A DNA stretch of 46,095 nt. It comes from a virus (lineage: Duplodnaviria > Heunggongvirae > Uroviricota > Caudoviricetes). A program made the position numbers and the translations under genes. The notes under the pieces are model-generated. The model made no database searches, was not told the origin of the DNA, and saw only the letters and a list, made by a program, of their open reading frames with translations. This document shows, piece by piece, positions 30,894 through 46,095 of this stretch. Location of the stretch: IMG/VR virus record IMGVR_UViG_2565956709_000007, one strand, 5' to 3'. Every line of letters starts with the position of its first letter. Position 1 is the stretch's first letter.

Positions 30894-31367
30894 ACAGCGA
30901 ATCAGATCAAATAAAACGCACATTTGTTAACATTTACACAAAGTCTGCGTGGGATATTCTGAAAGAATATCCATAATGTGGAGAGAATCTATTGAAGTGC
31001 ATGGTGCCGGGTGCCTCCCGGTGAATTCAGTACCAGCACCTGAATCCGCGATTATCCCATATACCTACTCGCTGATTGCCCCTCCGCACAGGGGGATTCA
31101 CCATGCCAGTTTCTTTTAACAAACTCCCCGCAAACCAGAGAACAGTCAACCGCCTGAATTGTGAAGTATTTAAAAATTTCTCCCGCTAACTGATACCCGG
31201 CTAACAGTCTGGCGTTTTCTTTTTCAGCAACGGGAAAGCAACAACCACCACACCCGCCACCAGCACACCGTCAGCCAGCACTGACATTATCCGGCTGCTG
31301 CAATGCCATTCACAAAAACAGTAAGCAATCACTTTTTACCGTAACAGGTGATAATCCAGATATGTAT

Positions 31368-31831: not shown

Positions 31832-31908
31832 TGGCGCGCTGTACTGGATTCGAACCAGTGACCGATTGCTTAGAAGGCAATTGCTCTGTCCGGCTGAGCT
31901 AACAACGC
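31832..31908 (-). tRNA. tRNA-Arg (anticodon UCU)
   Basis: Cloverleaf folded by hand: acceptor GCGTTGT/ACAGCGC, D-arm GCTC..GAGC, anticodon stem ATTGC/GCAAT with loop CTTCTAA, T-arm ACTGG-TTCGAAT-CCAGT, 3' GCCA. Confidence 0.85.
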
Positions 31909-31942
31909 TGAATACCGATAATGGACCGCCATCGGGGACCCG

Positions 31943-31954
31943 CCCCCCCCCCCC
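31943..31954. repeat. Homopolymeric C12 (G12 on the minus strand) tract between the two tRNA genes
   Basis: cgcccccccccccccgcacc read directly. Confidence 0.9.
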
Positions 31955-32015
31955 GCACCAACAACCCTGTTATCGTGTCGTCTGCTCTTCCTGATAAGCT
32001 CATGGCGGTTTGTGA

Positions 32016-32091
32016 TGGTGGCCCTTGCTGGATTTGAACCAGCGACCTGGCGATTATGAGTCGCTCGCTCTCACCACTGAGCTAAAGGACC
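32016..32091 (-). tRNA. tRNA with anticodon CAU (Ile2/ileX-like; Met-type not excluded)
   Basis: GGTCCTTTAGCTCAGTGGTGAGAGCGAGCGACTCATAATCGCCAGGTCGCTGGTTCAAATCCAGCAAGGGCCACCA folds as a cloverleaf and resembles E. coli ileX. Confidence 0.8.
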
Positions 32092-35227: not shown

Positions 35228-35383
35228 TTACTCCTCAGGTTCGTAGACTGTGAAGACAGCGACCTCCATCTGGCCGGTTCGGATTCGTACCTCGCAGAGG
35301 TCTTTCCTCGTTACCAGTGCCGTCACTATGACGGTTAAACAGATGACGATCAGGGCGATTAACATCGCCTTTTGCTGCTTCAT
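35228..35383 (-). CDS. hok: Hok/Gef-family type I toxin (HokD/RelF-like)
   Basis: 51-aa product MKQQKAMLIALIVICLTVIVTALVTRKDLCEVRIRTGQMEVAVFTVYEPEE; AAGGAG upstream; an in-frame ATG 19 codons further upstream (35440). Confidence 0.8.
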   Translation of the reverse strand: MKQQKAMLIALIVICLTVIVTALVTRKDLCEVRIRTGQMEVAVFTVYEPEE

Positions 35384-35641
35384 AGCCTGCTTCTCCTTGC
35401 CTTTCGGCACGTAAGAGGCTAACCTAGATTTGCCGTTCATAGATTGAGCCTCAGATTAATGTTAAGCGTCTTGCAGGACGCGTAATGTTAACTGGGGCTT
35501 TTCTCTATCTGCCTTTGGTGTTCATGCCTGAGGCAGATAGCCTCAAGCACCCGCAGTCATTCTACTTAACTAAGATTTCCCCGCAAACCGTTTTTGTCCA
35601 GCACAATAAATATCCAACTAAACCAATGGAGTTCGCTGTAT

Positions 35642-40074: not shown

Positions 40075-40120
40075 ATGTACTAAATGTACTTTACAACAAT
40101 GAACACAAAGTACATTATAT
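40075..40120 (+). promoter_or_regulatory. OL/PL-like promoter with operator half-sites driving the early-left (dicB) operon
   Basis: ATGTACT at 40075-40081 and 40084-40090, inverted AGTACAT at 40109-40115, bracketing candidate -35 TTTACA (40090-40095) and -10 CATTAT (40113-40118). Confidence 0.4.
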
Positions 40121-40296: not shown

Positions 40297-40452
40297 ATGG
40301 ATACTATCAATCTTGGCAACAGCGAATCTCTGGTATGTGGCGTGTTCCCCAACCAGGACGGTACGTTCACCGCAATGACGTATACCAAAAGCAAAACGTT
40401 TAAAACCGAAAATGGTGCCCGTCGCTGGCTGGAAAGAAACTCAGGTGAGTGA
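40297..40452 (+). CDS. ydfA: YdfA-like small protein (51 aa)
   Basis: MDTINLGNSESLVCGVFPNQDGTFTAMTYTKSKTFKTENGARRWLERNSGE; GAGG 5 nt upstream; first gene of the dicB-type operon. Confidence 0.55.
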   Translation: MDTINLGNSESLVCGVFPNQDGTFTAMTYTKSKTFKTENGARRWLERNSGE

Positions 40453-40453
40453 T

Positions 40454-41029
40454 ATGGATTTCGACACAATCATGGAAAAGGCTTACGAAGAATACTTCGA
40501 AGGCCTTGCCGAAGGCGAAGAAGCTCTCAGCTTCAGTGAGTTTAAACAGGCACTCAGAATAAGAATGTGCTCTCACAATGACGCGGAGCACAAATATGAG
40601 AAGCAAAATCAGACCGCAGAAAATTTTGTTCTGGAACCCGGAGAAACGCTTTTCAAAATTCCCGTTACGTGCCCCATTTGCGGTTTTACATCAGAAGAAC
40701 TTGACGACTCCTGTAACAATCAGGAAACAACCAAGTATGTCGAAGATGATACCGAGTGCGCACGAAGAACGATTATATCCACGAGTCCAAACTCCAGGGC
40801 CAATAAATCTCACTTTGAGAGGGTGATTAATCCACTCCCCCAAACCAATAAAAAAGATGCCGGAGGACAAAAAACCCAATGGAACAACGGGATATCTGTC
40901 AAAAAAAGACGTTCCATTAAAGACAAACAACGCAGCGCCAACAACTGTAAGCGCTTTATACCAGTAATCAATTTTCATGTTCTTAAGCGGATTTATTGGT
41001 GGTTGCGACATTGCTTAATGAATCCTTAA
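40454..41029 (+). CDS. YdfB/YdfC-like protein as one contiguous 191-aa ORF with a CPICG zinc-ribbon motif
   Basis: ATG 40454 two nt after the ydfA stop; N-terminus MDFDTIMEKAYEEYFEGLAEGEEALSF... Confidence 0.4.
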   Translation: MDFDTIMEKAYEEYFEGLAEGEEALSFSEFKQALRIRMCSHNDAEHKYEKQNQTAENFVLEPGETLFKIPVTCPICGFTSEELDDSCNNQETTKYVEDDTECARRTIISTSPNSRANKSHFERVINPLPQTNKKDAGGQKTQWNNGISVKKRRSIKDKQRSANNCKRFIPVINFHVLKRIYWWLRHCLMNP

Positions 41030-41287: not shown

Positions 41288-41346
41288 TTTTCTGGTGACG
41301 TTTGGCGGTATCAGTTTTACTCCGTGACTGCTCTGCCGCCCTTTTT
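41288..41346 (+). ncRNA. dicF: DicF small RNA
   Basis: tttctggtgacgtttggcggtatcagttttactccgtgactgctctgccgcccttttt matches my recollection of E. coli DicF, including the 3' terminator hairpin. Confidence 0.8.
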
Positions 41347-41515: not shown

Positions 41516-41704
41516 ATGAAAACGTTATTACCAAACGTTAATACGTCTGAAGGTTGTTTTGAAATTGGTGTCACTATCAGTAACCCAGTATTTACTGAAG
41601 ATGCCATTAACAAGAGAAAACAAGAACGGGAGCTATTAAATAAAATATGCATTGTTTCAATGCTGGCTCGTTTACGTCTGATGCCAAAAGGATGTGCACA
41701 ATGA
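41516..41704 (+). CDS. dicB: Cell division inhibitor DicB
   Basis: 62-aa product MKTLLPNVNTSEGCFEIGVTISNPVFTEDAINKRKQERELLNKICIVSMLARLRLMPKGCAQ; GAGGA upstream. Confidence 0.8.
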   Translation: MKTLLPNVNTSEGCFEIGVTISNPVFTEDAINKRKQERELLNKICIVSMLARLRLMPKGCAQ

Positions 41705-41892
41705 ATTCAGCATTTGTGCTTGTTCTGACAGTTTTTCTTGTTTCCGGAGAGCCAGTTGATATTGCAGTCAGTGTTCACAGGACAATGCAGGAGTGTATGA
41801 CTGCAGCAACCGAACAGAAAATTCCCGGTAACTGTTACCCGGTCGATAAAGTTATTCACCAGGATAATATCGAAATCCCGGCAGGTCTTTAA
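41701..41892 (+). CDS. ydfD: YdfD-like small membrane (lysis-associated) protein
   Basis: 63-aa product MNSAFVLVLTVFLVSGEPVDIAVSVHRTMQECMTAATEQKIPGNCYPVDKVIHQDNIEIPAGL; ATG overlaps the dicB stop. Confidence 0.6.
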   Translation: MNSAFVLVLTVFLVSGEPVDIAVSVHRTMQECMTAATEQKIPGNCYPVDKVIHQDNIEIPAGL

Positions 41893-41984
41893 AACAGTTC
41901 CGTAATAAATATCCGGTTTCATTCTTATATGCCAGCAATGGCAGGGATTTGTTCATCCTTAAATCTGTCATGAGGTTAAAACAA

Positions 41985-44456
41985 ATGAGTAAAGTCTTTA
42001 TTTGCGCCGCTATTCCTGACGAACTGGCAACAAGGGAAGAAGGCGCTGTGGCTGTAGCCACAGCCATTGAAGCTGGCGACGCACGCCGTGCTCGAGCAAA
42101 ATTTCACTGGCAATTCCTGGAACATTATCCGGCTGCTCAGGACTGCGCTTATAAATTTATTGTCTGCGAGGATAAACCTGGCATACCCCGCCCTGCCCTC
42201 GATTCATGGGATGCTGAATATATGCAGGAAAACCGCTGGGATGAGGAGTCTGCTTCTTTTGTCCCGGTTGAGACTGAATCCGATCCGATGAACGTCACTT
42301 TTGACAAGCTGGCCCCTGAAGTACAGAACGCTGTCATGGTTAAGTTCGACACATGTGAAAACATCACCGTTGATATGGTTATTAGCGCACAGGAATTGTT
42401 GCAGGAAGACATGGCAACATTCGACGGACATATCGTTGAAGCGTTGATGAAAATGCCAGAAGTTAACGCCATGTATCCGGAGCTTAAGTTGCACGCCATT
42501 GGGTGGGTTAAGCATAAATGTATTCCTGGTGCTAAATGGCCCGAAATTCAGGCAGAGATGCGCATCTGGAAAAAACGTCGCGAAGGTGAACGCAAGGAAA
42601 CCGGAAAATACACGTCTGTTGTTGATCTCGCCCGCGCCAGAACCAATCAACAGTACAGTGAAAATTCAACAGGAAAAATCAGCCCGGTCATTGCTGCCAT
42701 TCATCGCGAATACAAGCAGACATGGAAAACACTGGATGACGAACTGGCCTACGCTCTCTGGCCTGGTGATGTGGATGCCGGAAACATTGACGGCAGCATC
42801 CATCGCTGGGCAAAAAATGAAGTTATCGACAACGACCGCGAAGACTGGAAGCGTATCTCGGCATCAATGCGCAAACAGCCTGATGCCCTTCGCTACGACC
42901 GCCAAACTATTTTTGGCCTTGTCCGTGAGCGTCCGATCGACATTCACAAAGATCCCGTAGCACTGAACAAATATATCTGCGAATACCTGACGACAAAGGG
43001 CGTGTTTGAGAATGAAGAAACAGACCTGGGCACTGTTGATGTTCTCCAGTCATCAGAAACACAAACTGATGCAGTGGAAACTGAGGTATCTGATATCCCA
43101 AAAAATGAAACCGCGCCGGAAGCTGAACCATCTGTAGAGCGTGAGGGGCCGTTCTATTTCCTCTTCGCAGATAAGGACGGAGAAAAATACGGTCGCGCAA
43201 ACAAACTTTCTGGTCTGGATAAGGCACTGGCTGCTGGCGCCACTGAAATCACAAAAGAAGAATATTTTGCCCGAAAAAATGGCACATACACGGGCTTACC
43301 GCAAAATGTAGATACCGCTGAAGATTCAGAACAACCAGAGCCGATAAAAGTTACCGCTGACGAAGTAAACAAAATTATGCAGGCAGCCAATATCATCCAG
43401 CCTGACGCCGATAAGTTGCTTGCTGCATCACGTGGTGAATTTGTTGAAGGGATTAGTGACCCGAATGATCCGAAATGGGTTAAGGGGATCCAGACCCGCG
43501 ATTCTGTGAACCAGAACCAGCATGAATCGGAACGGAACTACCAAAAAGCGGAACAAAACAGCCCAAATGCGTTACAAAACGAGCCAGAAACGAAACAGCC
43601 TGAATCAGTGGCGCAACAGGAAGTGGAAAAAGTCTGCACCGCCTGCGGTCAGACCGGCGGCGGCAACTGCCCTGATTGTGGCGCGGTAATGGGCGACGCA
43701 ACATACCAGGAAACATTCGATGAAGAGTATCAGGTTGAAGTTCAGGAAGATGATCCGGAGGAAATGGAAGGCGCTGAACATCCACACAAGGAGAACACTG
43801 GCGGCAATCAGCATCACGATAGCGATAATGAAACTGGCGAGACGGCAGATCACTCAATTAAGGTGAACGGTCATCCAGAAATCACATCCACCAGCAGGAC
43901 GTGTGACCATCTAATGATCGACCTTGAAACCATGGGAAAAAATCCTGATGCCCCGATCATCTCAATAGGTGCAATATTTTTCGATCCGCAAACCGGAGAT
44001 ATGGGACCGGAATTTAGTAAGACTATCGATCTGGAAACTGCTGGCGGAGTCATTGATCGGGACACCATTAAATGGTGGCTTAAGCAATCACGCGAAGCGC
44101 AATCTGCCATTATGACCGATGAAATCCCGTTAGATGATGCACTGTTACAATTGCGGGAATTTATCGACGAAAACTCCGGTGAATTTTTTGTTCAGGTCTG
44201 GGGAAATGGAGCCAACTTCGACAACACGATTTTGCGCCGTTCATACGAACGGCAGGGGATCCCCTGCCCGTGGCGTTACTACAACGATCGCGATGTACGC
44301 ACAATCGTTGAGCTGGGGAAAGCCATAGACTTCGATGCCAGAACGGCTATTCCATTCGAAGGTGAGCGCCATAATGCACTTGATGACGCCCGTTACCAGG
44401 CAAAATACGTTTCAGTTATCTGGCAAAAACTGATCCCGAGTCAGGCTGATTCTTAA
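41985..44456 (+). CDS. Large early-left protein (YdfE-like, about 823 aa) with C-terminal DEDDh (DnaQ-like) 3'-5' exonuclease domain
   Basis: C-terminal motifs LMIDLETMG (Exo I), WGNGANFDNTIL (Exo II), HNALDDARYQAKYV (Exo III); central CTACGQTGGGNCPDCG zinc ribbon; acidic linker; GAGG upstream of ATG 41985. Confidence 0.5.
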   Translation: MSKVFICAAIPDELATREEGAVAVATAIEAGDARRARAKFHWQFLEHYPAAQDCAYKFIVCEDKPGIPRPALDSWDAEYMQENRWDEESASFVPVETESDPMNVTFDKLAPEVQNAVMVKFDTCENITVDMVISAQELLQEDMATFDGHIVEALMKMPEVNAMYPELKLHAIGWVKHKCIPGAKWPEIQAEMRIWKKRREGERKETGKYTSVVDLARARTNQQYSENSTGKISPVIAAIHREYKQTWKTLDDELAYALWPGDVDAGNIDGSIHRWAKNEVIDNDREDWKRISASMRKQPDALRYDRQTIFGLVRERPIDIHKDPVALNKYICEYLTTKGVFENEETDLGTVDVLQSSETQTDAVETEVSDIPKNETAPEAEPSVEREGPFYFLFADKDGEKYGRANKLSGLDKALAAGATEITKEEYFARKNGTYTGLPQNVDTAEDSEQPEPIKVTADEVNKIMQAANIIQPDADKLLAASRGEFVEGISDPNDPKWVKGIQTRDSVNQNQHESERNYQKAEQNSPNALQNEPETKQPESVAQQEVEKVCTACGQTGGGNCPDCGAVMGDATYQETFDEEYQVEVQEDDPEEMEGAEHPHKENTGGNQHHDSDNETGETADHSIKVNGHPEITSTSRTCDHLMIDLETMGKNPDAPIISIGAIFFDPQTGDMGPEFSKTIDLETAGGVIDRDTIKWWLKQSREAQSAIMTDEIPLDDALLQLREFIDENSGEFFVQVWGNGANFDNTILRRSYERQGIPCPWRYYNDRDVRTIVELGKAIDFDARTAIPFEGERHNALDDARYQAKYVSVIWQKLIPSQADS

Positions 44457-44528
44457 TGTTCAACTGTCGCCGGTTGTGACTGGTATTCTGCAACCGGCGC
44501 TCGTCTAATGTAAGAGATAAAGAAATCG

Positions 44529-44780
44529 ATGAGCGAAGTAATCATGATTGTCTCTCCCGGCAAATGGGTATCCGAAGAGCAGTTAATTGCGCTGAAAGGA
44601 ATAAAAAAAGGTACGTTAAAAAAGGCCCGGGAAAAATCGTTTATGGAAGGAAGGGAATATAAGCATGTCGCTCATGACGGTATGCCATGGGATAACAGTC
44701 CATGCTTTTACAACCTGGAAGAAATTGATCGCTGGATTGAGCGCCAGGCATCAGCGAGACCAAGACGTCATCTTACTTGA
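44529..44780 (+). CDS. xis: Excisionase (Xis-like)
   Basis: 83-aa basic product with GREY-containing region, immediately upstream of int. Confidence 0.55.
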   Translation: MSEVIMIVSPGKWVSEEQLIALKGIKKGTLKKAREKSFMEGREYKHVAHDGMPWDNSPCFYNLEEIDRWIERQASARPRRHLT

Positions 44781-44799: not shown

Positions 44800-46095
44800 A
44801 TGAGAGAAGTTGAAATGAAATATCCGACAGGCGTGGAAAACCATGGAGGGAAATTACGTATCTGGTTTGTTTATAAAGGCGTAAGAGTCAGGGAAAACCT
44901 GGGGGTTCCTGACACAGCAAAAAACAGGCGCGTTGCAGGTGAACTACGCTCCTCTGTTTGTTACGCAATAAAAACTGGTGTTTTCGACTATGCAAAACAG
45001 TTTCCCTCCTCACGCAATCTGGAAAAATTTGGTGAGGCCCGACAAGATTTAACCATAAAAGAACTGGCTGAAAAATTTCTGGCACTGAAAGAAACTGAAG
45101 TCGCCAAAACATCACTCAACACATACCGTGCCGTCATCAAAAATATCCTGAGCATAATCGGTGAAAAAAATCTTGCCTCATCGATTAATAAAGAAAAATT
45201 ACTGGAGGTTCGTAAAGAGTTACTGACTGGATACCAGATCCCCAAAAGTAACTATATTGTTACACAACCAGGGAGATCGGCTGTAACTGTAAATAATTAC
45301 ATGACAAATCTTAACGCCGTGTTCCAGTTTGGTGTTGATAACGGTTACCTGGCAGATAATCCGTTTAAGGGGATCTCGCCATTAAAGGAATCAAGAACCA
45401 TTCCGGATCCTCTTTCGCGGGAAGAATTTATCCGTCTTATCGATGCGTGCAGAAATCAGCAAGCAAAAAATTTATGGTGTGTTTCTGTTTATACTGGCGT
45501 TCGCCCTGGTGAGCTGTGTGCACTTGGATGGGAGGACATAGATCTGAAAAATGGAACAATGATGATCAGGAGAAATTTAGCAAAAGACCGTTTCACGGTA
45601 CCAAAAACACAGGCGGGAACCAATCGGGTCATTCATCTTATTAAGCCAGCAATCGACGCTCTCCGGAGTCAGATGACATTAACGAGACTGAGCAAAGAGC
45701 ATATCATTGATGTTCACCTCAGAGAGTATGGCAGAACAGAAAAACAAAAATGCACCTTTGTTTTTCAACCTGAAGTGTCAGCGAGAGTAAAAAATTATGG
45801 TGACCATTTTACCGTTGACTCAATAAGGCAGATGTGGGACGCAGCGATAAAACGTGCCGGACTCCGCCATCGAAAATCATATCAGTCGAGACATACTTAT
45901 GCCTGCTGGTCGCTGACAGCTGGTGCTAACCCGGCATTTATAGCAAACCAGATGGGCCATGCAGATGCGCAAATGGTATTTCAGGTATACGGAAAATGGA
46001 TGTCTGAAAACAATAATGCACAGGTAGCTTTGTTAAATACACAGTTAAGCGAGTTTGCCCCAACCATGCCCCATAACGAAGCAATGAAAAATTAA
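44800..46095 (+). CDS. int: Tyrosine site-specific integrase
   Basis: 431-aa product with catalytic region VRPGELCAL (R), HQSRHTYACW (H-x-x-R), MGHADAQMVFQVYGKW (H...Y); last gene before the window end. Confidence 0.85.
   Translation: MREVEMKYPTGVENHGGKLRIWFVYKGVRVRENLGVPDTAKNRRVAGELRSSVCYAIKTGVFDYAKQFPSSRNLEKFGEARQDLTIKELAEKFLALKETEVAKTSLNTYRAVIKNILSIIGEKNLASSINKEKLLEVRKELLTGYQIPKSNYIVTQPGRSAVTVNNYMTNLNAVFQFGVDNGYLADNPFKGISPLKESRTIPDPLSREEFIRLIDACRNQQAKNLWCVSVYTGVRPGELCALGWEDIDLKNGTMMIRRNLAKDRFTVPKTQAGTNRVIHLIKPAIDALRSQMTLTRLSKEHIIDVHLREYGRTEKQKCTFVFQPEVSARVKNYGDHFTVDSIRQMWDAAIKRAGLRHRKSYQSRHTYACWSLTAGANPAFIANQMGHADAQMVFQVYGKWMSENNNAQVALLNTQLSEFAPTMPHNEAMKN

Follow-up and report, generated by a model that had tools for sequence, protein, structure and literature searches.

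The stretch of DNA analyzed here (hereafter the window) is the 46,095-nucleotide Caudoviricetes record IMGVR_UViG_2565956709_000007 of IMG/VR. It carries, just upstream of the excisionase and integrase genes xis and int of a lambdoid prophage, a large gene whose product combines a scaffold related to RecE and YdfE with a predicted C-terminal 3'-5' exonuclease domain of the DEDDh type. In the list of open reading frames (ORFs), the full-length coding sequence of this YdfE-family / RecE-scaffold exonuclease forms a single long frame on the + strand (41985..44456), with an ATG start at 41985 and a stop codon at 44454-44456, which gives 823 amino acids (aa) plus stop. A Shine-Dalgarno-like GAGG is read at 41972..41975 (+), 9 nt before the ATG, and a longer product of 835 aa is possible from a TTG at 41949. 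The same ATG was selected by PGAP in the gene annotated 'exonuclease' of Escherichia coli strain 53 (WP_053886169.1), which is 99.9% identical at the DNA level. The 823-aa frame that an original prediction, made from the letters of the window alone, had placed here is therefore borne out by the ORF list and by the PGAP start. In the PHROG scan, the protein matched phrog_2082 from end to end (residues 1-822 of 823).

Judged from its sequence, the C-terminal domain (residues 641-823; 43905..44453, +) belongs to the DexA / Rv2179c-like family as a genuine DEDDh exonuclease with an intact catalytic pentad. The Pfam family PF16473 (Rv2179c-like 3'-5' exoribonuclease domain) matched residues 642-813 with E 2.4e-67 and 226.5 bits for a cut-off of 27, and the match, far beyond chance, spans positions 2-177 of the 177 positions of the model. 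An 8-sequence alignment was built from the domain, T4 DexA, EcD of E. coli and the stand-alone homologues of five phages (Salmonella, Pseudomonas, Vibrio, Pseudoalteromonas), and in it the pentad D646, E648, D746, H796 and D801 was invariant. These residues are found in the Exo I motif D646-L-E648 (43920..43928, +), aligned with D7 and E9 of DexA, in the motif N741-G-A-N744-F-D746, whose Exo II catalytic residue D746 (44220..44222, +) is aligned with DexA D119, and in the Exo III motif H796-N-A-L-D-D801 (44370..44387, +), of the form H796-x4-D801, whose H and D are aligned with DexA H186 and D191. Profile match and alignment both uphold the three DnaQ-like motifs of the original prediction, except that the second one reads N-G-A-N-F-D and is not strictly the N-x-x-F-D that had been given. 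A sequence search of the PDB returned T4 DexA (8KEL; E 5.5e-8) as the only solved relative, and no Rv2179c-type solved chain was retrieved by it even at E <= 10. The predicted order of secondary-structure elements is compatible with an RNase H-like (DnaQ) fold. The AlphaFold2 (AF2) model has a predicted local distance difference test score (pLDDT) below 50 over residues 561-823, because the alignment there mixed unrelated C-termini.

EcD ('HREX'; HAK9828821.1; Kang et al. 2025) has been reported to be specific for DNA containing 5-hydroxymethylcytosine (5hmC), to digest T4 DNA and to protect E. coli from T4 (PMC12153337). Its sequence was rebuilt with the help of the primers given in that paper, by scanning IMG/VR viral contigs for exact matches. 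The rebuilt protein has 189 aa, with Ala78 as published and a 3' end of the gene that fits the reverse primer except for one base, and it shares 37% identity with the window domain over 183 residues (E 3e-36). EcD is therefore a member of the family and not the same gene; identity of the two is ruled out, the EcD primers being without match in the window. The rebuilt gene was found on IMG/VR loci L014, L019, L029, L030, L032 and L035 (e.g. L035 6401-6991, −), with regulator and integrase genes near. From this location on viral contigs, EcD itself appears to be an early gene of temperate phages.

Upstream of the exonuclease domain, the protein is largely a relative of RecE. Residues 262-633 were aligned by BLASTP with residues 278-599 of K-12 RecE (39% identity over 372 columns, E 5e-62), and identity is near-complete over residues 475-625, which comprise the motif LLAASRGEFV(E/D)GISDPNDPKWVKGIQTRD, the CxxC...CxxC ribbon and the acidic linker. 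The NCBIfam RecE equivalog NF007259 matched residues 246-626 with its model positions 271-603, at 282.7 bits for a cut-off of 1269. The homology ends where the nuclease domain of RecE begins (PF12684, RecE residues 615-850), and the Pfam scan of the window protein detected neither this PD-(D/E)XK nuclease nor PF06630, the N-terminus of RecE (RecE residues 2-178). With three RecE-defining features missing, true RecE identity is ruled out, and the protein should therefore not be named exodeoxyribonuclease VIII. A known RecE-type enzyme would have spoken against the original prediction, and this applies by half: what was found is a chimera, RecE-type in its scaffold, and lacking the PD-(D/E)XK nuclease and PF06630.

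The N-terminal part is that of YdfE. The K-12 pseudogene ydfE (b1577) corresponds to residues 1-256, with 253 of 256 residues identical, and is then interrupted by IS2E; the suspicion that ydfE is a truncated remnant of this gene proved right. A 94%-identical homologue (P0001) is labelled PF27430 (YdfE_N), PF16473 and PF27432 (YdfE_C) in a precomputed table, and from such labels on close and distant homologues residues 1-343 would fall into YdfE_N and YdfE_C, two Pfam families named only recently. Our own Pfam scan, with a release that does not include PF27430 and PF27432, gave no match for residues 1-640, nor for ten scaffold relatives. The about 550 N-terminal residues once held to be unassignable are thus partly assignable, by RecE homology over 262-633 and by YdfE_N/YdfE_C labels over 1-343.

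With a diverse alignment, AF2 resolved the scaffold into three confident units with low-confidence linkers between them. The first unit is domain N1 of YdfE_N type (residues 1-200; 41985..42584, +; pLDDT 83-95), an alpha/beta subdomain followed by a helical bundle, also supported by dN/dS (the ratio of nonsynonymous to synonymous substitution rates, given below) and by identity to K-12 YdfE. Linker 1 (residues 201-244; 42585..42716, +; pLDDT <50), predicted to be disordered, leads to domain M1 of YdfE_C type (residues 245-343; 42717..43013, +; pLDDT 80-94), which is all-helical, common to RecE at about residues 278-360 and included in the partial match to NF007259. Linker 2 (residues 344-385; 43014..43139, +; pLDDT 24-47) is acidic and disordered. 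Then comes the small domain M2 (residues 386-437; 43140..43295, +; pLDDT 74-85), made of two beta-hairpins plus helices; with its invariant alignment columns (ERxGPFY...GRANK...EI), no other part of the scaffold is as conserved as this domain, for which no alignment was found in K-12 RecE. It is followed by motif M3 (residues 455-510; 43347..43514, +), LLAASRGEFVEGISDPNDPKWVKGIQTRD, which is near-identical in RecE according to BLASTP and the phmmer domain map. A zinc-ribbon-like CxxC-x7-CxxC (C551, C554, C562, C565) lies with its flanks at 43617..43709 (+) and is common to RecE residues 517-545. Finally, an acidic linker (residues 576-640; 43710..43904, +), within which RecE homology stops at about residue 633, joins the scaffold to the nuclease. 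The zinc ribbon and acidic linker of the original prediction were both recovered, with CxxC pairs at 551-554 and 562-565 and about 35% D/E over residues 561-620. At the DNA level, the segment 43404-43851 (residues ~474-622) shows 85-88% identity with recE or genes of the PD-(D/E)XK type from other strains, its flanks being unrelated. Because this mosaic joint falls in the linker directly before the nuclease domain, it suggests recent recombination between prophages at that joint.

The gene is neither rare nor unseen: it is a very common E. coli prophage gene, already annotated and with a PHROG of its own. It was matched in 4800 of 5426 complete E. coli genomes, at least 80% of its length being covered by the match in 3537 of them, with up to 10 matching places per genome and several copies in O157:H7; some genomes hold partial copies. 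It was also found in the sequenced phage records HannyBb (PP925841) and mEp460_ev081, and mEp460 has been described as a functional temperate phage. Database labels include 'exonuclease' and '3'-5' exonuclease', many records read 'exodeoxyribonuclease VIII', and many PGAP copies read '3'-5' exoribonuclease'. The window protein is not exodeoxyribonuclease VIII, and the exoribonuclease label is doubtful for it also, since it is probably not an exoribonuclease. No functional study of the full-length gene or of YdfE was found in the literature.

Selection was measured by the Nei-Gojobori method against two alleles, 94% and 88% identical in DNA. Over the whole gene, dN/dS was 0.19-0.25. The folded domains gave 0.09-0.10 (residues 1-200), 0.07-0.10 (residues 245-343) and 0.02-0.05 (residues 386-437, the most constrained part), and the exonuclease domain gave 0.11 with the more divergent allele. 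Values were 0.46-0.79 in the linker 201-244 and 0.68-1.25 in the linker 344-385. Interdomain linkers thus evolve almost neutrally and the folded domains are under purifying selection, which is therefore the pattern of a maintained multidomain protein and not of a decaying one. The possibility that the gene is a decaying prophage remnant without current function, to which the IS2-truncated K-12 copy and the partial copies in some genomes might point, is extremely improbable: the frame is intact, all catalytic residues are kept, dN/dS values contradict a decaying pseudogene, and the gene occurs at ≥80% coverage in thousands of genomes and in the phage records named above.

The scaffold is not restricted to this nuclease. 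With the full protein as query, a first search for homologues brought up nothing but alleles at 87-94% identity and one 739-aa fragment, and an exhaustive HMMER search with residues 1-640 among 1.84 billion cluster representatives gave only 245 clusters at E <= 0.001. Domain maps were drawn with phmmer for scaffold-family representatives of at least 450 aa. They show two N-terminal types, YdfE-like and RecE PF06630-like, and three main C-terminal classes, namely the DEDDh exonuclease (e.g. P0122, P0128, P0141, P0247), the PD-(D/E)XK nuclease of RecE (e.g. P0131, P0197, P0230, P0242) and a putative Rad52-like domain (17 representatives, e.g. P0129, P0134, P0186, P0238; others P0136, P0296). Each N-terminal type was seen with each C-terminal class, which makes six combinations. 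For example, phage vB_EcoS-813R8 encodes a RecE-type N-terminus with the DEDDh domain in a protein of 813 aa, in the same slot and without recT. We found no description of this combinatorial scaffold-cargo pattern in the literature.

The signature KKSLTDAxKKALSxLGFSADVxLGLYD marks the third class. Sub-threshold matches to PF04098 (Rad52_Rad22; best E 0.0024) came from eight of ten members, and hhalign (probability 100%) showed full-length homology of the class to a Pseudomonas phage protein of 248 aa, which was deposited as RAD52-like and has a Gp157/Gam-like gene next downstream. Similarly, the fused form of the third class in an Enterobacter prophage has a Sipho_Gp157 gene (PF05565) directly after it. 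The third class gave no hit in a PDB profile search, and neither did the stand-alone RAD52-like protein in the Pfam scan; because of these two results, we hold its assignment as a Rad52-like annealase at probable. These fusions, with a C-terminal domain of about 270 aa, occur in many Enterobacter, Klebsiella and Citrobacter prophages (e.g. locus L038 5001-7897), and databases label them 'exodeoxyribonuclease VIII' or 'exonuclease' despite no detectable nuclease domain. The three partners DEDDh, PD-(D/E)XK and Rad52-like therefore all point to recombination functions. Two further forms were seen on the scaffold. A fourth C-terminal class of about 260 aa, phrog_26058 (P0126, P0260, P0264; locus L040 5001-7109), had no Pfam match and lies between kilR and xis-int in Enterobacter prophages. 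In P0205 (703 aa), the N-terminal region of RecE is joined directly to a RecT-like annealase domain (phrog_148), which is either natural, as a recE-recT fusion or deletion, or an artefact of assembly.

In strain 53, a complete lambdoid prophage at the Qin locus (ydfJ to rspB) is collinear with the window. On the + strand, the order is a DicA-like repressor gene, the ydfA/B region, DicF, dicB, ydfD, the exonuclease gene, xis and int. The small RNA (sRNA) DicF is at 41290-41341 (+; Rfam 76.7 bits), and the ORF list together with the strain 53 annotation places dicB at 41516-41704, ydfD at 41701-41892, the excisionase gene at 44529-44780 and the integrase gene at about 44815-46095, all on the + strand. 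The position downstream of DicF/dicB/ydfD and upstream of xis-int, as the original prediction had it, is confirmed by Rfam, by the ORFs and by the strain 53 annotation, and no gene intervenes between the exonuclease gene and xis. In this interval, a GC-rich inverted repeat (9 bp, with a loop of 14 nt) was noted at 44468-44499 (+); as a special element this hairpin was rejected, as its folding energy is not unusual (z -1.6) and it has no T-run. The cassette dicB-ydfD-exonuclease gene-xis-int recurs at the ompW and potC sites, where the integrases differ, and the slot just before xis-int is thus conserved at three integration sites.

In a consensus scan, promoter-like sites on the + strand were found only upstream of the repressor gene and at 40090..40118 (TTTACA-17-CATTAT, a candidate dicBp / PL-type promoter); the same scan gave no internal promoter-like site within or just upstream of the exonuclease gene. 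In K-12, the dicBF operon, said to span ydfA-ydfE, has a PL-like promoter repressed by DicA, and its products other than DicF, DicB and YdfD have been described as uncharacterised (PMC10448788). Among the early ORFs, neither the PHROG scan nor the annotation of the collinear strain 53 prophage showed a RecT, Bet, Erf or RecB-type protein, in agreement with what had been predicted, and the window prophage yielded neither a 5'-3' exonuclease nor Gam. Within the early region, a 205-aa ORF at 40412-41029 (+) has a YdfB-like start (first 48 residues; phrog_35040, hypothetical in phage HannyBb); PGAP annotates only ydfA and a truncated ydfB there. It is overlapped by an antisense ORF of 106 aa (40691-41011, −) with many hydrophobic stretches. 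Elsewhere on the − strand, Rfam detected an STnc100 sRNA (30945-31135), two tRNA genes downstream of the Q-type antiterminator region (31835-32091) and a sok antitoxin RNA (35378-35552) that adjoins a hokD-type toxin gene; such elements are typical cargo of lambdoid prophages.

With moderate confidence, we propose that the window protein is a DNA 3'-5' exonuclease which a RecE-type platform brings to DNA ends during lytic growth; the enzymology part of this proposal is considerably more secure than the biological role, which we infer. The protein would be an early-left enzyme in two parts, a non-catalytic scaffold (YdfE_N, YdfE_C, the small beta/alpha domain, the RecE-type peptide motif, the zinc ribbon and the acidic linker) and a C-terminal DnaQ-like DEDDh exonuclease. 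By analogy with DexA and EcD, the nuclease would remove nucleotides from DNA 3' ends by two-metal chemistry. The scaffold may act as a delivery or tethering platform that brings any effector to linear DNA ends, or to recombination or replication intermediates; we regard it as cargo-independent because its alternative cargoes are the RecE nuclease, a probable annealase and RecT. The protein would be made only once a DicA-type repressor is lifted, and it would then serve phage end-processing or recombination with a polarity opposite to that of lambda Exo or RecE, and without a phage annealase. In favour of this proposal we count the sequence identity of the nuclease, the RecE homology with its breakpoint, the exchange of C-terminal cargoes, the conserved slot before xis-int, the replication or recombination modules in which stand-alone PF16473 genes lie, the selection on the folded domains, the linear-linear recombination that full-length RecE, scaffold included, is reported to enhance (PMC11611040), and the part that DexA is reported to have in intron homing (PMC12153337).

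Several points weigh against this proposal. To our knowledge, the characterised phage recombination exonucleases all act in the 5'-3' direction, and a 3'-5' enzyme would destroy the 3' tails that such exonucleases make. No annealase is encoded in the window prophage or in four other copies examined. The scaffold showed no structural relative that would indicate DNA binding (Foldseek with the full model: best E 0.33 in PDB and 0.025 in BFVD), and the C-terminal domain has no confident model in the full-length AF2 prediction. Also, Rv2179c, which gave PF16473 its name, is an exoribonuclease, and for EcD, which alone among E. coli relatives has been tested, the reported role is that of an antiphage nuclease and not of a recombination enzyme (PMC12153337).

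The last of these points leads to the main rival explanation, in which the protein is an exclusion or defence nuclease directed against the DNA of superinfecting or competing phages (e.g. modified T-even DNA), the scaffold adding targeting or regulation. The anti-T4 effect reported for EcD (PMC12153337), 37% identical over the whole domain, speaks for it, as do the conservation of the gene intact in thousands of genomes under purifying selection and its operon neighbour DicB, which is reported to block some phages. The sole PADLOC match, a weak one to a CRISPR-associated DEDDh model (E 1.8e-5), goes in the same direction. Nevertheless, we consider this explanation unlikely. The gene lies in a repressor-controlled PL-type operon with no internal promoter-like site, so that in most lysogens it should not be expressed, whereas typical prophage defence morons are. 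For 5hmC recognition by DexA, W152 and D169 have been reported (PMC12153337). W152 is retained in EcD and corresponds to Tyr766 in the window protein, and the position of D169 aligns with Ala780, a weak result since the alignment is loose in that stretch; by recognition residues as by architecture, the window protein is not of the EcD/HREX type. Moreover, EcD sits in a phage early operon beside a methyltransferase gene, so its status as a 'bacterial defence' is not settled, and the other cargoes of the scaffold are recombination proteins.

A second rival explanation is that the enzyme acts on RNA, either trimming RNA 3' ends or processing transcripts such as the dicBF polycistronic RNA. It would account for the name of the Pfam family and the PGAP label '3'-5' exoribonuclease', as well as for the co-transcription of the gene with an sRNA processed from the operon transcript. 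There is also a precedent in the ISG20-like 'TONDO' prophage DEDDh exonucleases with auxiliary domains, reported to block the RNA phages MS2 and Qbeta (2026 preprint, PMC13344964). The TONDO set, however, was seeded with human ISG20, comprises proteins of <500 aa and was described as distinct from other defence-associated DEDDh domains (PMC13344964). The only two tested members that could be found by sequence, DexA and EcD, act on DNA, Rv2179c-type solved chains stayed out of reach of the PDB search, and both the fusion partner and the other cargoes of the scaffold belong to DNA recombination. We therefore judge a role on RNA to be quite improbable.

It is very doubtful, too, that the protein serves host takeover or counter-defence, whether by salvage of host DNA, by destruction of immune nucleic acid (retron msDNA, DNA or oligonucleotide signals) or by a scaffold that shields DNA ends from RecBCD. 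Lambda carries gam and kil in the early-left region where our gene lies, the window prophage is without a Gam homologue, and the Rad52-like variants are followed by a Gp157/Gam-like gene. Scavenging of host DNA has also been reported for DexA (PMC12153337). Against this, PADLOC gave only the weak match to the CRISPR-associated DEDDh model, and neither Pfam nor PADLOC showed a known anti-defence domain in the scaffold, the structure searches being empty as well. Moreover, degradation of the host chromosome is not known from temperate lambdoid phages.

Beyond the proposal of a DNA 3'-5' exonuclease delivered to DNA ends, we tentatively suggest a wider reading, in which the N-terminal region of RecE represents one form of a self-contained, exchangeable platform that enterobacterial prophages arm with a 5'-3' exonuclease, a 3'-5' exonuclease or an annealase, the window protein bearing the nuclease of reverse polarity. 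The platform would exist with a YdfE-type or a RecE-type N-terminus on shared middle modules. The reverse-polarity nuclease could provide an annealase-independent route of end-processing or recombination, or an end-targeted exclusion of incoming linear phage DNA. Full-length RecE has been reported to enhance linear-linear recombination, and its N-terminal part has been described as unknown in function (PMC11611040). Related scaffold modules naturally bear three DNA-processing cargoes, including a nuclease of opposite polarity, and with these natural chimeras at hand the question of the RecE N-terminus becomes testable, as that of what a cargo-independent platform binds. The gene is one of the most widespread in E. 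coli prophages. Since its only tested relative in E. coli is claimed to be an antiphage nuclease, the choice between recombination and exclusion bears on prophage biology and on host range in phage therapy. If the protein is an ordinary accessory nuclease, the practical gain is a corrected annotation.

Among known systems, RecE of the K-12 Rac prophage is alike in position and size, with the same early-left slot near xis-int and 866 aa compared with 823 aa. The non-catalytic middle, the zinc ribbon and the acidic linker are homologous in both proteins. RecE, however, has its own PD-(D/E)XK 5'-3' nuclease where the window protein has a DEDDh 3'-5' nuclease, and the PF06630 N-terminus where the window protein has a YdfE_N-type domain; in K-12 recT adjoins recE, whereas in the window xis follows directly. 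Lambda Red (Exo/Bet/Gam) occupies the same early-left position upstream of xis-int, and the view that our gene takes the slot of lambda exo/bet, and of recET in Rac, is supported. Lambda Red-like two-component recombinases pair a 5'-3' exonuclease with an annealase, neither of which was found in the window.

T4 DexA is of the same DEDDh subfamily, likewise a phage-encoded early gene product with the five catalytic residues aligned, and it differs from the window protein in being stand-alone (227 aa; PDB 8KEL/8KEN), with extra loops, without scaffold and with about 23% identity to the window domain. DexA is a 3'-5' exodeoxyribonuclease and has been reported to take part in intron homing, a process of double-strand-break repair, besides its scavenging of host DNA (PMC12153337). 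EcD is similarly stand-alone, with 189 aa and the Trp retained, in contrast to the 823-aa multidomain protein with Tyr766; in viral contigs it has a DNA methyltransferase gene beside it and an integrase gene near, and no dicB-ydfD-xis-int cassette. Rv2179c of Mycobacterium tuberculosis shares the Pfam family and the DEDDh set and is a stand-alone protein described as an exoribonuclease. Stand-alone PF16473 genes of phages are found within replication or recombination modules, often beside a helicase gene: in 9NA next to a helicase and a primase, in a Vibrio phage next to DUF2800 and an OB-fold protein, between the primase-polymerase region and a Dda-like helicase in PH1, near dda in the case of T4 dexA, and two genes upstream of the integrase in Salmonella phage F1055. 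Lastly, K-12 YdfE keeps only the first 256 residues before IS2E, whereas the window copy is full-length.

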